Below are positions 1,375-30,990 of a DNA stretch of 64,000 nt, piece by piece (position 1 is the first letter of the stretch; each line of letters begins with the position of its first letter). This DNA is from Alloprevotella sp. GTDB lineage: Bacteria > Bacteroidota > Bacteroidia > Bacteroidales > Bacteroidaceae. Position numbers and translations under genes: made by a program. The notes beneath the pieces were generated by a model that was given only the letters and a program-made list of their open reading frames with translations, ran no database searches and was not told the DNA's origin. Location of the stretch: the NCBI GenBank assembly GCA_045121635.1, contig JBGVGJ010000058.1:48294-112293 (forward strand), in the 5' to 3' direction.

Positions 1375-4152
1375 ATGAAAAATTGGAATATTGGAATGCT
1401 GGCATTGGCGGCAGTATCGGAACCAATGGTGGCGCAGGAGCGCGCTGATGTGGAACCTTATTTGAAGATGCGCCCCAATGTGGTGATGATTTATGCCGAC
1501 GACCTCGGTTTTGGCGACTTGGAATGTTATGGCGCCGTTGGGGTGCAAACGCCTAATGTCAACCGATTGGCGGAGGGCGGTGTGCGCTTCACAAATGCGC
1601 ATGCCGTAGCGGCTACGAGTACGCCCTCGCGCTATGCCCTACTCACGGGGCAATATCCTTGGCGCAAGGCGGGTACGGACGTTGCGGCTGGAGATGCGGG
1701 TATGATTATTTCGCCCGACCAACACACCGTGGCTGATGTCTTTAAGGAAGCAGGTTACACTACCGCCGCCTTCGGAAAGTGGCACCTCGGATTGGGTGCT
1801 GAAACGGGCAAGCAGGATTGGAATGCTCCTATTACGCCAGCGTTGGCAGACATTGGTTTTGACTATTCCTACATCATGGCGGCTACGGCCGACCGCGTGC
1901 CGTGTGTGTTCATTGAGAACGGTGCGGTGGCTAACTACGACCCCTCGGCGCCCATCTACGTGAATTACAATAAGAATTTTGACGGCGAACCCACGGGTGC
2001 TGCCAATCCCGAATTGTGTTACAACTTAAAGTCGAGTCACGGACACAACAACTCTATCGTCAACGGCATCGGGCGCATTGGTTACATGAAGGGCGGAGGT
2101 AAGGCGCTTTGGAAGGATGAGAACATTGCCGACAGCATTACGGTGCACGCCGTGGACTTTATCCGTGAGAATCGCGAGAAGCCCTTCTTCATGTACTTTG
2201 CCACGAACGACGTCCACGTGCCCCGCTTCCCCCACGAGCGTTTCCGCGGAAAGAGCGAAATGGGTTTGCGCGGTGATGCCATTGTGCAATTTGACTGGAG
2301 CGTAGGCGAGATTATCCGCACGCTCGAAGAGCAGGGTTTGCTTGAGAATACGGTAATCATCCTTACGAGCGACAACGGCCCTGTGCTTGATGATGGTTAC
2401 GTAGATCAGGCGGAAGAACTCGTGGGCGAACACAGCCCTACGGGAGGTCTTCGTGGCGGTAAGTATAGCGCCTATGAGGGTGGTACACGCGTGCCCTTCA
2501 TCGTTCATTGGCCAGCGGTTATCAAGGAGCAGGCGGTGAGCAATGCCCTTGTTTCGCAGATTGACTTCCTCGACGTTATGGCAAGCATCTCGGGCGCCGG
2601 AAATGGCGAATCACGCTCAATGGATGGTTTCCCCGGAGAGGTCGCAACATGGTTTGGCAACGACACGCAAGGGCGCCCCTTCGCTATGGGAATGGCTCAA
2701 AACCACACGCTCACGCTCCGCACGACTACCTGGAAGTTCATCGAACCCAAGGGCGGTGCGGCAATGATTCCTTGGGGACCGGAGATTGAAACGGGTTACT
2801 CCACCACTCCCCAGATTTTCAAGTACACCGAAAGCACTCCGGATGAAACGCAGAACCTCGCCACTGACAACCCCGCCATTGTGAATAACCTCTCTGCCCA
2901 ACTCGAGAAGATTCGCAACCGACAATATGATGAAATCTCCATCATCGCCAAGGCGGGCGAAACTATCGACTTGACTCCCTATTTCGGGGCACAAGAAGGG
3001 GCCATCGTAACGGGCGACTTCATCTCGGGCGATGCCACCGACCTCAAGAAGATTACCATCAAGAGCGACCTCAGCGACGGTGCACACACGGGAGTTGTGA
3101 CCCTACCCAACGGCACGATATACCTCTTCTCCGTCATCATCAACCCCGAGTTTCATGGTGCCTACCACATCAATTACAACGGCAGTCCCCTATTCATCGG
3201 TTACAACACCACCCACGACAATAGTGGGAGCGAGGGTTACAAACTGATTTCCCCCGACCACTACTCTACCACCGCGCCTGGCGATGAAATCTTCATCATT
3301 CGCCCCTCGGGAGCGGGGTTTATGCTCTCCATGCAAGGCAAAGTCCTTCAGGAACCCAAACTCACCAAGTGGGGACACATCCTCTTTTCCGACAATGAGT
3401 CAGAAGCAGGTAACTACCTTTTTGAAGAGACTTCAACGGCCGACATCTACAAGATTCGTAGCAGTAGCGAGGGTATCAACTACATGAATGTCTATAGGGA
3501 ACACGGTGTAGCGGGCAACGACAAGGCCACCAAGGCAGGGCTTGCCACATATACCATTGAGCAAGTCGCCACCTTTCCCCTCACCTTTCCCTCCGACGGC
3601 GTAACCTCCCTCTGCCTGCCCTTCAATGTCATCATTCCCGAAGGCGTCATTGCCTATGATGCAACGCCGACCGACATCAAGGAGAACGGAGCGAATAGGT
3701 ATAGTTGCACCATGCAAGCCATAGCAGGGGCCGGCGAAACCCTCAAGAGCGGCACGCCCACAATCGTGAGCGGAAGCGAAGGCACGCATCAGTTCGTCAT
3801 CACGATGTCCGATAGCGAAGCCGTTACTTCCCTCCCCTCTTCCCTACTCAAGGGCAACTATGTAGAGGCAAATCTATCACAAACGGGCGATGCAACGAAA
3901 TTCCTCCTTGCCGAAAAAACGTTCAAGGCATTCACTGGTTCGCAACCCATCGCCGCCAACCAATGCTGGTTAGAATGCGACTTAGCACAAGCAAGCGAAA
4001 TCATCGCGGAGTTTAACACCCCCACCGGTATTCAAGGCACGCTCAACTCACAACCACAAAGTAGCACCATCTATAGCGTGGCGGGCAAACGCCTAAGCGC
4101 GCCTCAAAGGGGCATCAATATCATTGACCAGAAAAAGGTGCTTGTGAAGTAG
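1375..4152 (+). CDS. sulfatase (Ser-type) with long C-terminal extension and T9SS C-terminal sorting domain
   Basis: The N-terminal 480 aa is a sulfatase fold (DDLGFGD, active-site S-T-P-S-R in AATSTPSRYALLTGQYP, TSDNGP). The C-terminus ...IYSVAGKRLSAPQRGINIIDQKKVLVK is a typical Por/T9SS CTD. Confidence 0.8.
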   Translation: MKNWNIGMLALAAVSEPMVAQERADVEPYLKMRPNVVMIYADDLGFGDLECYGAVGVQTPNVNRLAEGGVRFTNAHAVAATSTPSRYALLTGQYPWRKAGTDVAAGDAGMIISPDQHTVADVFKEAGYTTAAFGKWHLGLGAETGKQDWNAPITPALADIGFDYSYIMAATADRVPCVFIENGAVANYDPSAPIYVNYNKNFDGEPTGAANPELCYNLKSSHGHNNSIVNGIGRIGYMKGGGKALWKDENIADSITVHAVDFIRENREKPFFMYFATNDVHVPRFPHERFRGKSEMGLRGDAIVQFDWSVGEIIRTLEEQGLLENTVIILTSDNGPVLDDGYVDQAEELVGEHSPTGGLRGGKYSAYEGGTRVPFIVHWPAVIKEQAVSNALVSQIDFLDVMASISGAGNGESRSMDGFPGEVATWFGNDTQGRPFAMGMAQNHTLTLRTTTWKFIEPKGGAAMIPWGPEIETGYSTTPQIFKYTESTPDETQNLATDNPAIVNNLSAQLEKIRNRQYDEISIIAKAGETIDLTPYFGAQEGAIVTGDFISGDATDLKKITIKSDLSDGAHTGVVTLPNGTIYLFSVIINPEFHGAYHINYNGSPLFIGYNTTHDNSGSEGYKLISPDHYSTTAPGDEIFIIRPSGAGFMLSMQGKVLQEPKLTKWGHILFSDNESEAGNYLFEETSTADIYKIRSSSEGINYMNVYREHGVAGNDKATKAGLATYTIEQVATFPLTFPSDGVTSLCLPFNVIIPEGVIAYDATPTDIKENGANRYSCTMQAIAGAGETLKSGTPTIVSGSEGTHQFVITMSDSEAVTSLPSSLLKGNYVEANLSQTGDATKFLLAEKTFKAFTGSQPIAANQCWLECDLAQASEIIAEFNTPTGIQGTLNSQPQSSTIYSVAGKRLSAPQRGINIIDQKKVLVK

Positions 4153-4549
4153 CGAGCGCTTGTTCTACAACGATTGAAACACCAGAATTCATACATCCAC
4201 ATTGCCGATAACAAGGTAGTGTGGATTTCTTTTTTGTTAGGGTTGGTTTGAAAAATGAAACGCTATCTCCTCCCGTTTAACCACCTATTCACTTACAGAA
4301 AACTAAGTCTCTAATAGAAAAAAATATTTGAGACTTAATTAAAATTCTTTGAGACTTAGTTTTTAGCAACTCCCATTCTTTTCAAACACCACCTATTTTA
4401 TGGCTTAAAGAAGGACTCCTCACCCTTACAAAATCTTAAAATACTATAAATATCGTAGTTAATTACTATTTTTATCGTAGAAAGTATTTTCCAATTAAAA
4501 TCTTACTACTATATTTGCCGTAGAAAATAAAAACACAACAATTATAGCT

Positions 4550-4915
4550 ATGAAACAAAAGAATTTGACGAAGGCAGAATTGCAATTGATGAACATACTT
4601 TGGGCGAAAGGTGAAGCCACGGTGAGTGAAATTATTGAGGCAATGGGCGAACCGAAACCTGCTTATACTACGGTGCTCACCGTGATGCAAGTATTGACAC
4701 GCAAGGAAGTAGTATTCCCCGAGCGCCGAGGCAAGGCACACGTATTCCGCCCCCTACTCTCGCGCGAAGAATACATCAACGGCTTCATGCACGAAACGCG
4801 CGACACGCTCTTCCACGGTTCGCTCCGCAACTTCCTCTCTTATTTCGTAAAGAGCGAGAAGTTGAGCAAGGAAGAACTTCAGGAAATTCTTGAAGAAATC
4901 AATGGCGAGAAGTAA
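4550..4915 (+). CDS. BlaI/MecI/CopY-family transcriptional repressor
   Basis: 121-aa winged-helix protein whose N-terminus MKQKNLTKAELQLMNILWAKGEATVSEIIEAM is typical of the penicillinase-repressor family. A BlaR1-family gene follows directly. Confidence 0.8.
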   Translation: MKQKNLTKAELQLMNILWAKGEATVSEIIEAMGEPKPAYTTVLTVMQVLTRKEVVFPERRGKAHVFRPLLSREEYINGFMHETRDTLFHGSLRNFLSYFVKSEKLSKEELQEILEEINGEK

Positions 4916-4966: not shown

Positions 4967-6748
4967 ATGATAAGTTCATTTTATCCCCTGCTCTACGGCT
5001 ACGCCAGCATGATGCTCGTGTCCGTTTTGCTGCTGGTTTTCTACATCATATTCCTCTCCAGGAAGCACTCATTCCGCTTCCAACGCAGTTACTTGCTCGC
5101 CATCCCCGTGGTGTGCTTGTTGCAGGTGGGGGCATCCTTCGCGAAGTCTTATTTTGAGGCACAACAAACACCCGAAGTATTGACGATGACGCAAGCGGAA
5201 GCAGATGTTTACCTCAAGGAGCATCCCGAGGCAGTGATGCAACAAGAGGTAATCCCGACGCTCCCCGAACCGCAAGTAGGAACAGAAATGCCAACCGAGG
5301 AAGTTGCTCCAACGGAAGCGCCATCCGTCATTTCATTCACCGAAGCGTCGTTGCGCACAACCCTCTGCATCGCCCTCCCTGCGGAGTCTGCCGTCTTGCT
5401 CCTCATTATAATAGTGCCCCTCGTGCAATTGCGCTTCAAGATGCGCAAACTCTCGTTCGAGGGTGATAGTTCCAACGGCAATATCCTGCGTGCGGCGTGG
5501 ATACAAACGCCCTTCTCCTTCGGACGCCTGATATTCTTGCCCGCTGGTCGCACACCCGCCGATGAGCGTCTGTTTATCCAACACGAACAAGCCCACATCG
5601 CTTGCCGACATTACATTGATGTGTGGACAATTGAGTTGCTCACGCGCCTCTTGTGGTTCAACCCCGTATTATGGATGGTGCGCAAGACGCTACGCGACCT
5701 TCACGAATTCGAAGCCGACCGCCTCGTACTCGAACAAGGTGCGGATGCCTACACCTATCAGTGCCTACTCGTGGGCGAAGCTTCGGAAGATTGTAGCATT
5801 ATTGCCAACGGTTTCAACAACTCCTTCATCCGCCGTCGCATCAAGGAAATGAAGCGCACGGAGCGCATAGGCGTTAGTCGCTTTGGCAAACTCCTTACCG
5901 CCTTGTGGGTAATTATGCTTATAGGCGCTACGGTTGCCTTTGCCCTACCCCAAAAGCCTGCTACGATTGTGCACATCATAAAAGACACACGCGTTATGGG
6001 CGTTGACACCTGCTATGTAGAAGAAAGCGCTACCCCAACGCAAGTAACCATAACGCAACCCTCATTTATCGTACATGGGCATGGGGATTCCTCGGAGTTT
6101 ACGAGCATCGTTAGCGAGACTCCCGATAGCATGTATTCACAACACTTAATCGTCAAATACCCTGCTCGCTCAAAAGAAGAAGCAACTGCTATTTCGAGTC
6201 GCATACAAAATCAGGTGCAAATCGTGCTCAAATTGTCAGATGTAGATAAGTTGCACCAAGATGCAAAGCAAGCACCTACCGCTCCATCTCCCGCGCCTCA
6301 ACAAGAGGCGAGCGAGGAACCTACCCCACAAAGCACCTCCACCGAATACGAATTTCCCACCCACGACCACAACGGTTGGCGCTATGTCATGGACCTTCCC
6401 TTGCACGACCCCAATGACCAACGTCGCATGTGGATTCGCCACGAGGGAAACGAAACCCACATCACCTTTGCGAAGTACATAAGTAGCGACGACGAACTCG
6501 TGCGCTTCGGAGGCCCCGATAGTTACATTGTTGACACTGCCACAGGTTACCATTACAAGGCCCGCCGTAGCATTCCCGCCTACGCCTGGCATTACTTCCA
6601 CGTCAAAGGCATGAAGGGAAAAACCGTGGACATCACCGTGGTCTTTCCTCGCATCCACGACACTGCCCGATGGATTTCACTCTACCAAGTTACCTCACAT
6701 TTGCAGAGTGGCGAGCGAATCAACGTAAAGCAACATTTGCAGAAATAA
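4967..6748 (+). CDS. BlaR1-family M56 membrane metalloprotease sensor
   Basis: N-terminal TM helices, a HExxH motif in the M56 context (QHEQAHIACRHYIDVW...EFEADR), a Pro-rich linker and a roughly 230-aa C-terminal domain of unknown type (not obviously TonB or PBP). The start could also be the downstream MML. Confidence 0.75.
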   Translation: MISSFYPLLYGYASMMLVSVLLLVFYIIFLSRKHSFRFQRSYLLAIPVVCLLQVGASFAKSYFEAQQTPEVLTMTQAEADVYLKEHPEAVMQQEVIPTLPEPQVGTEMPTEEVAPTEAPSVISFTEASLRTTLCIALPAESAVLLLIIIVPLVQLRFKMRKLSFEGDSSNGNILRAAWIQTPFSFGRLIFLPAGRTPADERLFIQHEQAHIACRHYIDVWTIELLTRLLWFNPVLWMVRKTLRDLHEFEADRLVLEQGADAYTYQCLLVGEASEDCSIIANGFNNSFIRRRIKEMKRTERIGVSRFGKLLTALWVIMLIGATVAFALPQKPATIVHIIKDTRVMGVDTCYVEESATPTQVTITQPSFIVHGHGDSSEFTSIVSETPDSMYSQHLIVKYPARSKEEATAISSRIQNQVQIVLKLSDVDKLHQDAKQAPTAPSPAPQQEASEEPTPQSTSTEYEFPTHDHNGWRYVMDLPLHDPNDQRRMWIRHEGNETHITFAKYISSDDELVRFGGPDSYIVDTATGYHYKARRSIPAYAWHYFHVKGMKGKTVDITVVFPRIHDTARWISLYQVTSHLQSGERINVKQHLQK

Positions 6749-6761
6749 AAAGTAAAAAAAC

Positions 6762-7469
6762 ATGAAGAGATTTCTGTTCCCCCTTATAACCCTTCTTCTC
6801 ATCACGTCATGCGGATGCGGTCCTAAGTATTACATTGTGGCCGAGCGCGATGAACAAGGCAAAATCCTCTCCGTAAGAGAAATGACGGAGGCAGAAAAAG
6901 CGGAGACAATGCGTCTGAAAAAGAACGCACTGACTTACGACACCATCCCCAACTTCCGCCTTGCCACACTCAAAAAGCCTGCCGAGAACTACGACCCCGA
7001 GGATTACAACACCTTTGCCGTCTATACCCATCCGCACACCGTGGCACCCTTACAGAGCCCCCAAGGCACTGACAATTTAGCGATATGGTGCACCAAGGAT
7101 GCCACCTACCTCGCTATCGTGGACGAGCAAATGTGGACCCGCAGATACCATCAAACATCCAAAGATTTTCACCTCCGCGATAGTCAAACAGGCAAAACCT
7201 ACCCCATCATCAAACTCTTGGGTTACCCCTTGGATCAGGTCTTTTGGATAGAAGGTGTGCCGGGCGAATGGCGTTGTCGCCTCCTTGTCTTCCCACCTCT
7301 CACGAAGCAATGCACAACCATTGACATCATCAACGACGGTCCTATGCCCAAGCATGTAAAGGGCACTACAGGTTGGGGCATTCGCAAATCTCTTTACAAA
7401 ATTCCCGTCAGCACACTTCAAGCACAACAACACATCGCCACGTTTAAGGAAACCGTGGTCGTGGAATAA
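6762..7469 (+). CDS. hypothetical lipoprotein, co-transcribed with the BlaI/BlaR1 pair
   Basis: 13-nt gap after the BlaR1-like gene. Signal peptide plus lipobox (LLITSCGCG). No recognisable domain. Confidence 0.6.
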   Translation: MKRFLFPLITLLLITSCGCGPKYYIVAERDEQGKILSVREMTEAEKAETMRLKKNALTYDTIPNFRLATLKKPAENYDPEDYNTFAVYTHPHTVAPLQSPQGTDNLAIWCTKDATYLAIVDEQMWTRRYHQTSKDFHLRDSQTGKTYPIIKLLGYPLDQVFWIEGVPGEWRCRLLVFPPLTKQCTTIDIINDGPMPKHVKGTTGWGIRKSLYKIPVSTLQAQQHIATFKETVVVE

Positions 7470-7491
7470 ACGCATACGCACGAACAACCCT

Positions 7492-7530
7492 GGGGAGCGG
7501 AAGCCCCAAACACCTCCGTTCCCCTTTTTC
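7492..7530 (+). terminator. probable terminator of the blaI-blaR-lipoprotein operon
   Basis: ggggagcgg...ccgttcccc stem followed by ttttt. Confidence 0.45.
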
Positions 7531-7747
7531 ACCCACTGATGTGCTATAAAAATAGTATGACGCAAAACGATATTCCACTTACCAAAAGTTAAGTCGGAGA
7601 TAATTTGAATGAAGTGCCTAATAGTTTTAGGGAGTTCAAAGTTTATTTTGACTTGCTTGGAAATGGTATTTTATAAACCTAATTTTTAGAAACAAATGAG
7701 AAAGGAACTTGCAGATGTCCGCCATTTAGGGATTAGCATTCTTTCAT

Positions 7748-7965
7748 GACGCTGAAGGCGTCACCGCTCAATAACCAGGGTGTTTGAGCGAAGCGAATAC
7801 CCCTGGTAGCGAGACACTGATGAGATGCACCCTGACGGGGTGCCCCAGCACATGCTCCAATTAATGGGGCACACCCTTCGGGGTGCATCGATGGGGAGTA
7901 CCCACATCCCTGGGTATTCGCGATGCTCAAACCCAGGGTTACTGAGCGGAGACGCTTTCAGCGTC
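7748..7965. repeat. MITE-like structured element with long imperfect terminal inverted repeats
   Basis: The termini gacgctgaaggcgtc / gacgctttcagcgtc are each a self-palindrome and together an inverted pair. The adjacent arms ccgctcaataaccagggtgtttgagcg and cgatgctcaaacccagggttactgagcgg are about 85% inverted copies. Internal hairpins include gcacccTGACGgggtgc and gcacacccTTCGgggtgc. No ORF is present. Confidence 0.5.
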
Positions 7966-8107
7966 TAACGTACACTTTGAAAACACCGATTTATTACCCT
8001 ACCAAAAAAATATAAAATTTCCCTAAAAAATCTGTCACAAAAAAGCCTCTCGATCGTTATATAATTAGAGACGCATCTTTTATACTCTGAGTTCAATTCC
8101 TGCACAG

Positions 8108-8143
8108 CCTTAAAACCTTATAACCTCAGAACCTCATAACCTA
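8108..8143. repeat. family-1 repeat, short copy A
   Basis: ccttaaaaccttataacctcagaacctcataacc, upstream of the outer-membrane protein gene. Confidence 0.5.
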
Positions 8144-8196
8144 TGGAGTTGAGCTCTTGCGAAACGACTATCTATAACACTTAACGCATAATTTTC

Positions 8197-11034
8197 ATGA
8201 AACACCTATTCCCCCTCCTCATTGCGCTCTTCGCCCTCTCGGCACAAGCGCAAACCTTCAAGTTCAGCGTGAAGGGAACTATCGTTGAAGAAGGTACAAA
8301 GGACGCACTTCCCACGGTGAAAGTGCAACTGCTCACTACCGACTCCGTGCGTGAATCGCACGCCACAACCAACGAAGAAGGCGCTTTTCTGCTCAAAGCC
8401 AAGAAGGCGGGCAAATACATTGTCTGCGCTGAAATGGTGGGTTTCGAACCCCTCTATCACAATGTGGAGTTTACTACAAAAAAATCCGCCATTGACCTTG
8501 GCAAACTCACCCTTACGGCACAATCTTACCAACTCGACGAAGCGCAAGTAACTGCCCTCTCGCGCATGATGACCGTGAAGGCCGACACCCTCCTGTTTAA
8601 CACCAAAGCCCTGCGCCTTCCGCCCAACGCTTCGCTCGCCGCAATGATGAAGGAGTTGCCCGGCATTTCCATTGACAAAGACGGCAACCTCACCTTTCAG
8701 GGCAAGACAGTGAGTCAGGTGCTCGTGGACGGCAAACCCTTCTTCGGCGATGTGAGTACGGCACTTGCCAACATGCCTACCGACGCCGTGAAGGATGTAA
8801 AGATGTACGAGAAGACGGACGAGGAAAAGGAGTTTCGCGGCGAACTCGACACGGACAAGGCTACCGTGGTTGACCTCACGATTAAGGACGAATATAAGTC
8901 GTCGTGGATGGCAAACATCGACCTCGGCGCCGGCACTCACGACCGCTACATCGGCAAGGTGTTTACCACGAACTTCACCGACCGCCGTCGCACCGCCATC
9001 TTTGGGCAGGTGAACAACGTCAGCCAGAATCAGAGTGTGGACGAAAACGGCAACTGGTCGTATTGGGGTGGCATGAACGGCATCTACACCTATCGCAAGG
9101 CGGGCGCCATGCTTCAATGGGACAACGGCAAGGGCAACAAGGAAGCGGGCAACTTGCGCGTGAACGGTAACGTCAACCTCTGGCACAACGACCAGACGAC
9201 CATCACCGACAACAACAATGAAACCTTCCTCGGAGGCGGAAAGTCGCAATACGGCTTTGCCCACGCTGAGCAAAAGGCGCATCGCGTGGGGGGAGATGCA
9301 AATGCCACCCTCAGGTACAACATCGACTCGCTCAACCGCATCTACTTGAGTGCCAAGTATTCGTATAACGCCAACGATAGTAAGAGCCAATCTTTCTCAT
9401 CCACCTATCACGAAGCGCCCACCGACAATGGCAACTTGGCGGGTAGCCTTATGGCGAACGACGCTCCCGAAGCGCTCCGCCAGCAAGCGGTGAATGCACA
9501 ACGTAGTGCGGGATTGGGCACGTATAACAACCACAGTATGGGCTTCATTGCCAACTATACGCACGTGTTCCAAAAGGCAGGACGCACCATCGACTTTTAC
9601 GTTTCGGGGAAATACAACACTACGGACAACGAGAGCGATGCCCTACAACATTACCGCTACTTCCGCCCCGACGCTCCGCGCCCCGAATTGACCAACCGCC
9701 AATTCACGTATGGTCCCAGCGATAATTATTACTTGAGTGGCGAAGTGAGTTATAGCGAACCCTTGAGCAAGCACCTGAAACTCAAGGCAACTTATAACTA
9801 CACGCACGAGAAGAAGGACAACCGCCACGACCTTTACCAGCTGGACCGCTATGATTACTATGCCAACCCCAACGTGCCCGTAGGTTTCCGCCCCACTCCC
9901 GGCGACTCGTTAGAGTTTGTGCGCAATGTGGAAAACTCTACGTTCTCCGACCTTTACAACAATGCGCACCGCGTCGTTTTGCGCCTTCAGGGGCAATGGG
10001 ATAAGGTGGACATGGCAATTTCTCCGTTGGTAACGCTCAATAATGAAAATCTGTATTATCAGAAGGGTAAGGACTTCTTTGCTCCCACCCGCACATCGGC
10101 ACATTGGAACCTCTTCGGGACATTGAAGTATAAGTTTGACGCTCAAAACTACATTCAGCTCAATTATCAAGGCGCTACCTTCCGCCCCACCCTCCAGGAA
10201 CTGCTCCCCATTCGCGACACGAGCGACCCGATGTCGGAAACGGTGAACAATCCTGACTTGAAGACGGGATGGTATAACAACCTTTATTTCTCCAGCAACT
10301 TCTTCAACACGAAGCGTGGCGACTCCTACAATGTGTGGGGTGGATTCAGCCAATCGTCTAATGACGTAGTGACCATCATGCAGGTTGACCCCGCAACGGG
10401 CTTCACACGTTACAACAAGAAGAACGTGAATGGCAGTTACCACACATATGGTTCCGTAGGCACAGAGCAACCGCTCGACACGGCGCGCCACTGGACGCTC
10501 ACCTCAAGCCTCTACATGAGTTACGACCACTCTACGGGTTTTGTAGGCGCCATGGGCAACGACCTCGGACTTTCCAGCATCAACAATGTTAACACCACCG
10601 CACGCCTCGGACTTCGCTATCGCAAGGACATTTGGAGCGTGTCGCTCAACGGGATGTACGAAGGACGCTACACCCGCTATAAGGAAACACCTCAATACAA
10701 CCAAGACGGACATACCTACGAAGTCATCCTTTCGCCACAAGTGGACCTCCCCTTCGGCATGAAGATTAACTCTCAATGCATTTTCTACACCCGCACGGGC
10801 TTCTCCGACCCCATGCTCAACCACGACCAATGGATTATCAACGCCTCCGTCTCGCAAACCTTCCTGAAGGATAAGTCGCTCACCCTCCAACTCGAAGTCA
10901 CCGACCTCCTACAAGAACGCACCTCGGAATTCAGCCACCTCAGCGCCATCTCGCGCACCTTCAGCCGCACCGAATGCTTCCTCAGCTACGTCATGCTCCA
11001 TGCGATTTATCGTCTGAATTTGGGAGGGAAGTAA
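8197..11034 (+). CDS. TonB-dependent-receptor-like outer-membrane beta-barrel protein with N-terminal carboxypeptidase-regulatory-like domain
   Basis: Signal peptide, CarbopepD_reg-like N-terminus (FKFSVKGTIVEEGTKDALPTVKVQL), a plug-like region (DEAQVTALSRMMTVKADT..) and about 700 aa of alternating beta-strand sequence. No SusC NQxxG signature was seen. Confidence 0.7.
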   Translation: MKHLFPLLIALFALSAQAQTFKFSVKGTIVEEGTKDALPTVKVQLLTTDSVRESHATTNEEGAFLLKAKKAGKYIVCAEMVGFEPLYHNVEFTTKKSAIDLGKLTLTAQSYQLDEAQVTALSRMMTVKADTLLFNTKALRLPPNASLAAMMKELPGISIDKDGNLTFQGKTVSQVLVDGKPFFGDVSTALANMPTDAVKDVKMYEKTDEEKEFRGELDTDKATVVDLTIKDEYKSSWMANIDLGAGTHDRYIGKVFTTNFTDRRRTAIFGQVNNVSQNQSVDENGNWSYWGGMNGIYTYRKAGAMLQWDNGKGNKEAGNLRVNGNVNLWHNDQTTITDNNNETFLGGGKSQYGFAHAEQKAHRVGGDANATLRYNIDSLNRIYLSAKYSYNANDSKSQSFSSTYHEAPTDNGNLAGSLMANDAPEALRQQAVNAQRSAGLGTYNNHSMGFIANYTHVFQKAGRTIDFYVSGKYNTTDNESDALQHYRYFRPDAPRPELTNRQFTYGPSDNYYLSGEVSYSEPLSKHLKLKATYNYTHEKKDNRHDLYQLDRYDYYANPNVPVGFRPTPGDSLEFVRNVENSTFSDLYNNAHRVVLRLQGQWDKVDMAISPLVTLNNENLYYQKGKDFFAPTRTSAHWNLFGTLKYKFDAQNYIQLNYQGATFRPTLQELLPIRDTSDPMSETVNNPDLKTGWYNNLYFSSNFFNTKRGDSYNVWGGFSQSSNDVVTIMQVDPATGFTRYNKKNVNGSYHTYGSVGTEQPLDTARHWTLTSSLYMSYDHSTGFVGAMGNDLGLSSINNVNTTARLGLRYRKDIWSVSLNGMYEGRYTRYKETPQYNQDGHTYEVILSPQVDLPFGMKINSQCIFYTRTGFSDPMLNHDQWIINASVSQTFLKDKSLTLQLEVTDLLQERTSEFSHLSAISRTFSRTECFLSYVMLHAIYRLNLGGK

Positions 11035-30532: not shown

Positions 30533-30990
30533 AAAGAACAGAGGAGCGATAAGCCGGGTTCTGTACCCTCAGGGCATTACGGAGGTGTAACTTCCCAGAA
30601 ACGAGGGTGCTTATCATTTATCCGCACGCACCATCACTGATGCGCTCTATCGTTCTACCCTCCGGCGCGCTTTGTTCACGAGGAACAAAATCTCGAACGG
30701 GCAATCCTCATTCGCCGGTATACATGAACTTTCAGCCTCCGATGTGCACAGCTCGTATGTCGCCACACGACTGGTGGGCTCTTACCCCACCTTCTCACCC
30801 TTACCTATGAAGCTGTCATCTTGAAAACAAGACGCGCCAAGGAGGTTATTTTCTTCTGCACGACTTAACCCTCACGGACTACTTCCCATTAAGAAGCGGA
30901 GCGCCCTATGCTGCCCGGACTTTCCTCCTGCACCACTTACATTGCGCAAGGCAACGGGATGCACGCGATAAGCAGCTCTTCTGTTCTCTA
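30533..30990 (-). ncRNA. rnpB: RNase P RNA (bacterial type A)
   Basis: The minus strand reads ...GGAGGAAAGUCCGGGCAGCAUAGGGC near the 5' end and ...ACAGAACCCGGCUUA near the 3' end; these are the universally conserved P4 strands. The P1 helix GAGAACAGAAGAGC / GCUCCUCUGUUCUU closes the molecule. ORF 30607..30810 inside it is spurious. Confidence 0.85.

Follow-up and report, generated by a model that had tools for sequence, protein, structure and literature searches.

A self-complementary intergenic block upstream of an outer-membrane protein gene in Alloprevotella is probably a gene-less copy of a Y1-transposase element family of Prevotellaceae

The sequence analysed here is a stretch of 64,000 nt from Alloprevotella sp. 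(assembly GCA_045121635.1, contig JBGVGJ010000058.1, positions 48,294 to 112,293; hereafter, the window), and our subject is a 218-nt non-coding block at positions 7748–7965 of it. Two plus-strand genes, which form its context and lie outside the element, enclose the intergenic region: upstream, a 235-aa open reading frame (ORF) without a Pfam family (6762–7469), which follows a BlaR1/M56-like gene, and downstream a gene for a 945-aa outer-membrane beta-barrel protein with OMP_b-brl_3 and CarboxypepD_reg domains (8197–11034). The block has a GC content of 0.57–0.61, compared with 0.26–0.34 in the surrounding intergenic DNA, and its 3' end is 231 nt from the ATG of the outer-membrane protein gene (8197), in agreement with the distance of about 230 nt given in an initial annotation made from the sequence alone. 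We consider it very probable that 7748–7965 is a non-autonomous copy of a small Y1-transposase element family that is found in Prevotellaceae of rumen and gut and in other Bacteroidales, similar in kind to REPINs (inverted doublets of repetitive extragenic palindromic, or REP, units) and to TIRtrons (Y1 transposase genes flanked by long terminal inverted repeats, or TIRs).

The block is nearly wholly self-complementary, and its two-fold symmetry spans essentially all 218 nt. Its outer parts pair as 7748–7776 with 7937–7965 (29 nt, 90% complementary) and as 7782–7802 with 7912–7932 (21 nt, 86%), and the two inner GC-rich hairpins are themselves mutually complementary (7824–7839 with 7874–7889, 88%). 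The left arm begins with a terminal hairpin, H1 (GACGC-TGAAG-GCGTC, 7748–7762), the stem of which is lengthened to 6 bp by T7747 and A7763, and continues through a linker (ACCGCTCAATAACC, family consensus CCGCTCAGTAACC, 7763–7776) into an inner module, H2 (CCAGGG...CCCTGG, 7775–7806), which can form either a local imperfect hairpin or pair with 7909–7938, and a central hairpin, H3 (GCACCC-TGACG-GGGTGC, 7827–7843). Beyond a central junction at 7844–7868 the order is reversed in the right arm, with the central hairpin H3' (GCACACCC-TTC-GGGGTGC, 7869–7886), the inner module H2' (7909–7938, delimited by sequence and fold), a linker (GGTTACTGAGCGGA, 7937–7950, delimited by sequence and family alignment) and the terminal hairpin H1' (GACGC-TTTCA-GCGTC, 7951–7965), its stem closed by A7950 and T7966. 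Both central hairpins are recognised by sequence and by pairing in the family described below, and the whole is annotated as a complete doublet, a left plus a right arm, on the basis of its anatomy, fold, profile match and arm alignment; no strand is assigned to it or to its parts. As RNA, the plus strand has a minimum free energy of −140.7 kcal/mol, compared with −75.9±4.6 for dinucleotide shuffles (z = −14.2, equalled by 0 of 200 shuffles), and the minus strand folds too (z = −11.8).

Much of this had been recognised in the initial annotation, which described the terminal palindromes as inverted copies of one another, the adjacent arm segments as about 85% inverted-identical (we measured 86–90%), and two GC hairpins in the centre. 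Its inverted repeats of 55–60 bp are indeed inverted, but their extent was underestimated, as the symmetry comprises two arms of ~100 nt. The block was also said to contain no ORF: a mechanical 65-aa ORF with a TTG start does overlap it on the minus strand (7733–7930), and nothing supports this as a gene. The description of the element as the sole copy in the window agrees with searches by mismatch, by fuzzy terminus and by an nhmmer profile of the family, the last of which matches exactly 7748–7965 (E 3e-58).

Outside the window, the element belongs to a dispersed repeat family. One genome per species was scanned with a terminus pattern (GCGTCWCCGCTCARTAACC) that matches both arms and holds 19 nt fixed, and at least 114 loci were found in ~40 genomes, almost all from ruminant or gut Prevotellaceae, Alloprevotella and other Bacteroidales. 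Many genomes supply several contigs: among the matches listed, UBA4361 contributes at least 17 loci and Alloprevotella JAZQXH at least 9. Five of the listed loci come from unrelated phyla and share the pattern only, or, in L027, 23 nt around it; they are consistent with chance, because by our own arithmetic 596 Gb should yield ~17 matches by chance. A single record among the matches listed, Bacteroidales bacterium KHT7 (L115), which has a doublet, carries neither a metagenome-assembled genome (MAG) nor an uncultured label. Another record, L113 (JAZRDC010000032.1), is labelled as a Clostridia bacterium MAG and carries family half-units together with outer-TIR motifs typical of Prevotellaceae loci (see below); a mis-binned contig or horizontal transfer is the probable explanation of its label.

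At least 62 complete doublets were recovered, the window copy included (61 in other loci), with lengths of 193–245 nt, modes at 196 and 215–221 nt, and 67–90 base pairs in the fold of every one of the 62. The doublets are extragenic: none of the 62 lies inside a long ORF, and they are found between co-directional, divergent and convergent ORF pairs, beside unrelated genes. In some genomes they have been amplified recently, with up to 13 doublets per genome among the matches listed and identities of up to 99.5–100% between copies on separate contigs of one genome. Half-units of ~100 nt also occur among the family loci. At the Alloprevotella locus itself, the flanking genes are found on two Logan contigs from a single sample, one of them stopping at window position 7775 and the other beginning at 7747; the assembly graph therefore forks precisely at the element's left end, which hints, at the level of that sample, at the presence of further copies.

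The association with a transposase is seen in relatives that carry a gene between the arms. By tblastn, seven tnpA genes were found among the matches listed, each in a separate genome, one of them frameshifted (L114) and none in the window; each sampled genome has at most one tnpA among the matches listed, compared with up to 13 doublets. In six of the seven (L084, L090, L040, L047, L086 and L114) the tnpA ORF sits between the two inner H3 hairpins, at the site that corresponds to the junction 7844–7868 of the window copy, with an arm of ~100 nt (H1, linker, H2 and H3) on each side, and the seventh (L014) has no recognisable arm upstream of the ORF. The full unit measures ~660 nt, made up of a left arm of ~100 nt, a 444-nt ORF coding for a Y1 protein of 147 aa, and a right arm of ~105 nt, inverse to the left one. 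Positions 1 to ~103 of the window copy align with arms upstream of tnpA (~80% over ~100 nt) and positions ~115–218 with arms downstream of it (75–82%); the window element therefore consists of the left end and the right end of such a unit, with the gene missing. The H1 stem variants of gene-bearing copies (GACGG/CCGTC and GACCGC/GCGGTC) preserve pairing. As to polarity relative to tnpA, both orientations of the element align and score alike, and a TAA at 7863–7865, considered as a possible stop-codon remnant, was rejected as too weak to serve for this purpose.

Arrays of partial units occur as well. Directly after tnpA in L084 there are three tandem right halves with a period of 139 nt (4028–4417), followed by a full doublet at 4502–4722, and this cluster resembles bacterial interspersed mosaic elements (BIMEs) or REPtrons. 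Elsewhere, tandem arrays with a period of 51 nt (a 28-nt terminus and a nearly constant 23-nt spacer) stand beside a full doublet, at L112 5022–5175, L097 2395–2495, L032 207–257 and L098 7207–7257; these are not CRISPR-like, because the spacers resemble one another. Among TnpA relatives, the P0052 locus (L128) has two nested arm pairs, one of 64 nt (98% complementary) and one of 71 nt (82%). No flanking inverted repeats were found at P0098, a more distant TnpA relative of 52% identity, and so the arm association is not general to all TnpA homologues.

The L084 protein matches Pfam Y1_Tnp (PF01797, E 9e-22) and the NCBIfam IS200/IS605 model (67.9 bits, above the cut-off of 55), and reaches 16.6 bits with REP_Tyr_transpos, below the cut-off of 80. 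All six intact TnpA proteins, of 147 aa each, carry the sequences DH[IV]H and YI[IM]NQK.HH, and with the latter the motif Y---Q--HH. Their nearest solved structures are 2fyx (a putative Y1 transposase), 2xm3 and ISHp608, all from IS200/IS605-family Y1 transposases, and the PDB comparison returned no structure of a REP-associated tyrosine transposase (RAYT) at E ≤ 1. Identity with a classical RAYT is ruled out by the NCBIfam score, the motif (no Y---NP) and these structural neighbours. A protein search yielded ~120 clusters of TnpA relatives at 37–98% identity, many of them on contigs of 0.6–2 kb. For both P0098 and P0052, an identical protein recurs in one fixed genomic context, in six of six listed places each; such a fixed context resembles the behaviour of REPtrons or TIRtrons and not that of a jumping insertion sequence (IS), and the transposase appears to be a single-copy or low-copy gene. 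Y---Q--HH is the signature given for TnpA(Y1) subclass 1.2 (Quentin et al. 2018, PMC6006769), and on the strength of this published signature, the short length, the apparent low copy number and the Bacteroidetes host, we would assign TnpA to that subclass.

The same protein data could be read as pointing to a decayed IS200 of the ordinary multi-copy sort, with TnpA subclass 1.1 behaviour, the block being a simple internal-deletion derivative unconnected with any RAYT-like single-copy or domesticated system. TnpA does pass the IS200/IS605 cut-off and fail that of REP_Tyr_transpos, its nearest structures belong to IS200/IS605, and the tnpA of L114 is frameshifted. However, sampled genomes hold at most one tnpA and up to 13 doublets among the matches listed, TnpA proteins of identical sequence keep to a single fixed context from sample to sample, the arms form long inverted repeats where IS200/IS605 ends are asymmetric, and the Y---Q--HH signature belongs to the low-copy subclass 1.2 (PMC6006769). 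We regard this account as extremely improbable.

The ends of the doublets have no target-site duplication (TSD) in any of the 62 copies, also when shifted boundaries are considered. In 51 of them the flanks share 1 nt only (T/T, or A/A in the other orientation), while six share 2–3 nt and five share none, which is no more than is seen with randomly paired flanks. The shared base pairs with position 16 of the arm and closes the 6-bp terminal hairpins (T-GACGC...GCGTC-A on the left, A-GACGC...GCGTC-T on the right); this closing T·A pair of H1 is found in 54 of 57 oriented copies.

Within the family alignment, compensatory changes maintain the local hairpins. Across five of these, 94.8% of cells are paired and six pairs (30 cells) are altered on both sides, values reached by 0 of 500 shuffles, although the counts come from related sequences and not from independent events, and part of H1 and the linker was fixed by the search pattern. 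For the same reason the near invariance of alignment columns 17–29 in the linker is partly forced in the pattern-found set, because that segment was part of the pattern. Pairing reaches 99.1% of cells in the left H3 and 100% in the right H3', each with one pair changed from C-G to U-A in seven copies, the H3 of the opposite arm staying unchanged in either set. In the left H2, 32 copies have G-C and 4 have A-U at pair 30/57, and at pair 37/49 the counts are 25 for U-A and 8 for G-C; in the right terminal H1', pair 223/231 is G-C in 31 and A-U in 3. The window copy and its orthologue in L057 differ by two such double changes (A30/T57 to G/C and T164/A188 to C/G), both inside local H2 hairpins. 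There is almost no arm-to-arm covariation in the family alifold consensus and none among the orthologues, and the left and right H2 modules are of different sequence types in many copies. Selection appears to act on individual hairpins rather than on complementarity between the arms. This pattern fits recognition of single hairpins on one strand, as is established for TnpA of IS200/IS605 and for REP/RAYT, and not recognition of a double-stranded TIR.

A second layer of structure is present around some doublets in relatives. Where copies are 99–100% identical within a genome (UBA4361 and CALCHM), the repeated unit exceeds the doublet, which is central in it. These composite units (L020 at 5394–5670, L100, L055, L030, L024 and L048 in UBA4361; L006, L019, L079, L097 and L107; and L110) carry outer TIRs of their own, of three unrelated types (GGCAATGATATAGCAGTTGACCC, TAAACTTTCCCATC or AATGATTATCCGCA), and AT-rich direct repeats of 8–10 bp, namely TAAAATAA in L020, TTAATCATT in L100, ATTAATAA in L097, ATATTTAA in L019 and TAAATATAA in L110. 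An automated screen detected such repeats in 9 of the 62 copies and in 0 of 200 mismatched controls. No convincing layer of this sort was found at the window copy or at any of the seven gene-bearing copies; around the window copy the best outer match is just 12 nt, a level seen in 92 of 200 controls. Either the doublets prefer the centres of other palindromic elements as insertion sites or these elements carry them along. A comparable situation, of REP dimers embedded in larger palindromes, has been noted by Di Nocera et al. (PMC3733652).

The composite units speak for a classical MITE (a miniature transposable element with inverted repeats), moved through its TIRs by a DDE transposase with a TSD, in which the Y1 gene would be a mere occasional passenger: the doublet is central in larger units with outer TIRs and 8–10-bp direct repeats, and it is these units that are 99–100% identical within a genome. 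Yet neither the window copy nor any gene-bearing copy has a convincing outer TIR or TSD, and three unrelated types of outer TIR hold the same doublet, the first type being found with other cargo as well, so that the doublet is to be seen as a module in its own right, one that either lands in other elements or travels with them. Compensatory changes, furthermore, keep hairpins within each arm, which a transposase reading double-stranded TIRs would not require, and no DDE transposase was found between the arms, the sole gene there being that of the Y1/HUH transposase. A DDE-driven MITE is a very improbable identity for the block. The proposal of a MITE-like mobile insertion in the initial annotation stands in so far as the family is multi-copy and dispersed and has gene-bearing relatives with the same ends, but not as a classical TIR/TSD/DDE element, the partner being of the Y1/HUH type. 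Similarly, of the two signs by which a MITE had been expected to show itself, further copies were found in many genomes and contexts, and TSDs were absent at the doublet ends and seen only around the larger composites elsewhere.

The outer TIR motif, (G)GCAATRATATAGCAGTTGACCC, is also present without a doublet at L007 (~897 and ~1059), L072 (~460), L079 (~3087), L028 (~5413), L042 (~5715), L053 (~3915), L082 (~1808) and L116 (~264), and at several of these sites another GC-rich repeat comes next (ACCCCTCC...GGTACTCCCCCTA...), which suggests that these genomes contain at least one further MITE-like family. L108 was considered as an autonomous form of the first outer-TIR element and rejected, as the 390-aa ORF that it encloses is unlike a transposase on reading the translation. 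A further short repeat type (GAGTACAGAGTACAAC..., with CCATCCGGATGG palindromes) was observed at L121 ~420–560 and L084 3300–3345; it is intergenic, near family members, and upstream of an outer-membrane protein orthologue.

At its own site the window copy is an old resident. The element is found at the same place in four species-level relatives (L106, L081, L065 and L057), the outer-membrane protein genes of which are 93.7–94.7% identical to that of the window, and the element itself has an identity of 89.9% in L057 and of 96.3–98.6% in the other three, the close relatives. Identity amounts to 90–97% for the right intergenic flank and to 91–93.5% for the left (three close relatives), and from this conservation of flanks and element it follows that the insertion is old and at most mildly constrained. 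Perfect conservation in all relatives was not found: L120, a metagenome relative with an outer-membrane protein gene of 92% identity, lacks window positions 7634–8004 (~370 nt) and has ~60 unrelated nt instead, and in L117 and L121 the upstream region diverges completely from 8176 leftwards. The window copy is most likely a long-resident passenger.

The stability of the fold and the position of the block raise the alternative of a structured RNA that would serve the outer-membrane protein gene, as a cis-regulatory leader, a riboswitch or a small RNA, and be reused at many other genes. In its favour are the extreme stability of the fold, the position upstream of the gene with a possibly shared orientation, and the conservation at this locus, where four species have kept the element at 90–98.6%, somewhat above the left flank (91–93.5%). 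But the right intergenic flank is conserved as well as the element (94–97%), both strands fold equally well, family copies stand in all orientations relative to ORF pairs, beside unrelated genes and on either side of a transposase gene, and L120 has a 92%-identical outer-membrane protein gene without the block, two other relatives having a different upstream region. Rfam gave no match at the element at gathering scores in a search of the whole window, and permissive settings (E ≤ 1) on 7000–8700 returned just two chance-level microRNA matches (E 0.5–0.95). A promoter and terminator scan gave nothing informative; the terminal hairpins lack a T-run. Taken together, a structured RNA is very unlikely. 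No tRNA or tmRNA was found in the window, and the element gave no match in a blastn comparison with collections of phages and plasmids or in viral contigs scanned with the pattern. The sole gathering-level Rfam match in the window is an RNase P class A RNA at 30534–30984 on the minus strand (187.5 bits, E 5e-59).

By analogy with IS200/IS605 TnpA and with REP/RAYT systems, a transposase encoded once elsewhere in the genome would recognise the hairpins where DNA is single-stranded, as at replication forks, would cut at or beside the terminal hairpins through a 5'-phosphotyrosine intermediate, and would move or copy the doublet in trans without duplicating the target. Several points weigh against a Y1-mobilised doublet. 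Neither tnpA (by tblastn) nor a second copy of the element lies within the 64-kb window, and the 19 terminus nt fixed in the search pattern bias the estimates of conservation for H1 and the linker. The recent spread in relatives may be DDE-driven and not Y1-driven, because the amplified unit is larger and has its own TIRs and TSDs. At the locus, the element is fixed at one site in four species, which also fits an old and possibly immobile relic or retention for a host function, and the sole absence allele found, that of L120, is a replacement and not a clean empty site.

Among known systems, the nearest in general design are the REPIN/RAYT (REPtron) systems of Proteobacteria, reportedly described by Nunvar in 2010, by Bertels and Rainey in 2011 and by Ton-Hoang in 2012. 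Both consist of GC-rich palindromic units outside genes, set in inverted doublets that fold as one long hairpin, and in both many non-coding copies accompany a low-copy Y1/HUH transposase, the gene of which has the same units, inverted, on either side. Also common to both are the absence of a TSD, the tandem and mosaic BIME-like arrays, and the inclusion of some copies within larger palindromes (PMC3733652). In contrast to these systems, the arms here are ~100 nt long with three hairpins, where a REP is a single unit of 20–40 nt; there is no unpaired GTAG (or CGTC) tag, the terminal ...GCGTC lying in a stem; the enzyme is of the IS200-like class 1 with Y---Q--HH, and not of the RAYT class 2 with Y---NP; and the hosts are Bacteroidota.

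TIRtrons, with their TIR-associated tyrosine transposases (TIRYTs), likewise have a Y1 gene flanked by long TIRs, some of them self-complementary, and form moderately abundant families, often of dimers (Di Nocera et al. 2013, PMC3733652). Most described TIRYTs are of class 2.1, all of those with a C-terminal helix-turn-helix domain, and the TIRs of most TIRYTs share GGGGWSAS (PMC6006769), whereas the enzyme here is a 147-aa class 1 protein and the arm sequences are different. Subclass 1.2 (PMC6006769) is approached by the Y---Q--HH motif in six of six intact proteins, the short length, the apparent low copy number and the Bacteroidetes host, but the genes studied here are flanked by structured arms, which exist also as dispersed doublets.

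With IS200/IS605 elements the family has in common the Y1/HUH catalytic family, subterminal hairpins, the lack of a TSD and derivatives that keep only the ends. Gene-less IS200/IS605 derivatives include the palindrome-associated transposable elements (PATEs) of haloarchaea. Unlike the Prevotellaceae elements, with inverted arms of ~100 nt, a low-copy gene and no tnpB, IS200/IS605 elements have asymmetric ends without long inverted repeats and are usually multi-copy. Classical MITEs (RUP, Correia/NEMIS, ERIC) are similarly small (70–300 bp), non-coding, multi-copy and gene-adjacent, with inverted ends and strong hairpins if transcribed, but they have TIRs of 15–30 bp, TSDs and a DDE origin, while the doublet has no TSD and a Y1 partner, and only the composites elsewhere are MITE-like. 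The Prevotellaceae doublets, then, work like REPIN or TIR repeats and yet fall outside both the classical RAYT/REP and the DDE MITE definitions, and their nearest counterparts are TIRtrons/TIRYTs (PMC3733652) and subclass 1.2 (PMC6006769). As a kind of mobile DNA this is ordinary and not surprising; as for the family itself, a literature search returned no description of this Prevotellaceae repeat, nor of repeats tied to TnpA(Y1) subclass 1.2.

Subclass 1.2, a branch from Bacteroidetes and Cyanobacteria, was described in 2018 as low-copy and as having no recognisable end structures or associated repeats (PMC6006769). We put forward tentatively, and with somewhat less than even confidence, that the doublets are its missing DNA partners, and that they represent a second, independent REPIN/RAYT-like arrangement, in which a single-copy class 1 transposase maintains a population of large three-hairpin doublets. 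If so, the doublets may target the hairpin tips of TIR elements or hitch-hike on them.

The surroundings of the block show some variation of their own. A BlaI/Penicillinase_R-like repressor and a BlaR1/Peptidase_M56-like sensor pair (4967–6748; L001 2789–3154) directly precede the 235-aa ORF. That ORF (6762–7469) has just 73–77% nucleotide identity in L106, L065, L057 and L120, though the flanking genes have 90–95%, and 96.6% in L081; this jump in divergence suggests allelic replacement or recombination around the intergenic region. Just 5' of the outer-membrane protein gene, at 8108–8139, there is a short tandem 8-nt repeat (CCTTAAAA/CCTTATAA/CCTCAGAA/CCTCATAA), and the region around it varies among relatives, L081 being without 8073–8175 and L117 and L121 having other short tandem motifs. 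In L057 (~2050–2190), a tandem repeat of ~46 nt (GGTCGCAAAACG.CAAATAGATCTATTTGG.GCAATCCGA) lies immediately left of the element, and clear homology with the window starts at the left end of the element (7745–7748).

For annotation, the block and its dozens of Prevotellaceae counterparts should be labelled as repeat or mobile DNA, and neither as a small RNA nor as a riboswitch. Repeats of this kind also account for contig breaks in rumen and gut metagenome assemblies, as with the two contigs of one sample that end at the element boundary. A very stable hairpin (about −140 kcal/mol), in or before the leader and 231 nt upstream of the start codon, could possibly affect the outer-membrane protein gene, through transcription or mRNA stability. 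Beyond this locus, the family offers a concrete, testable DNA substrate for one of the less well characterised Y1/HUH transposase branches.

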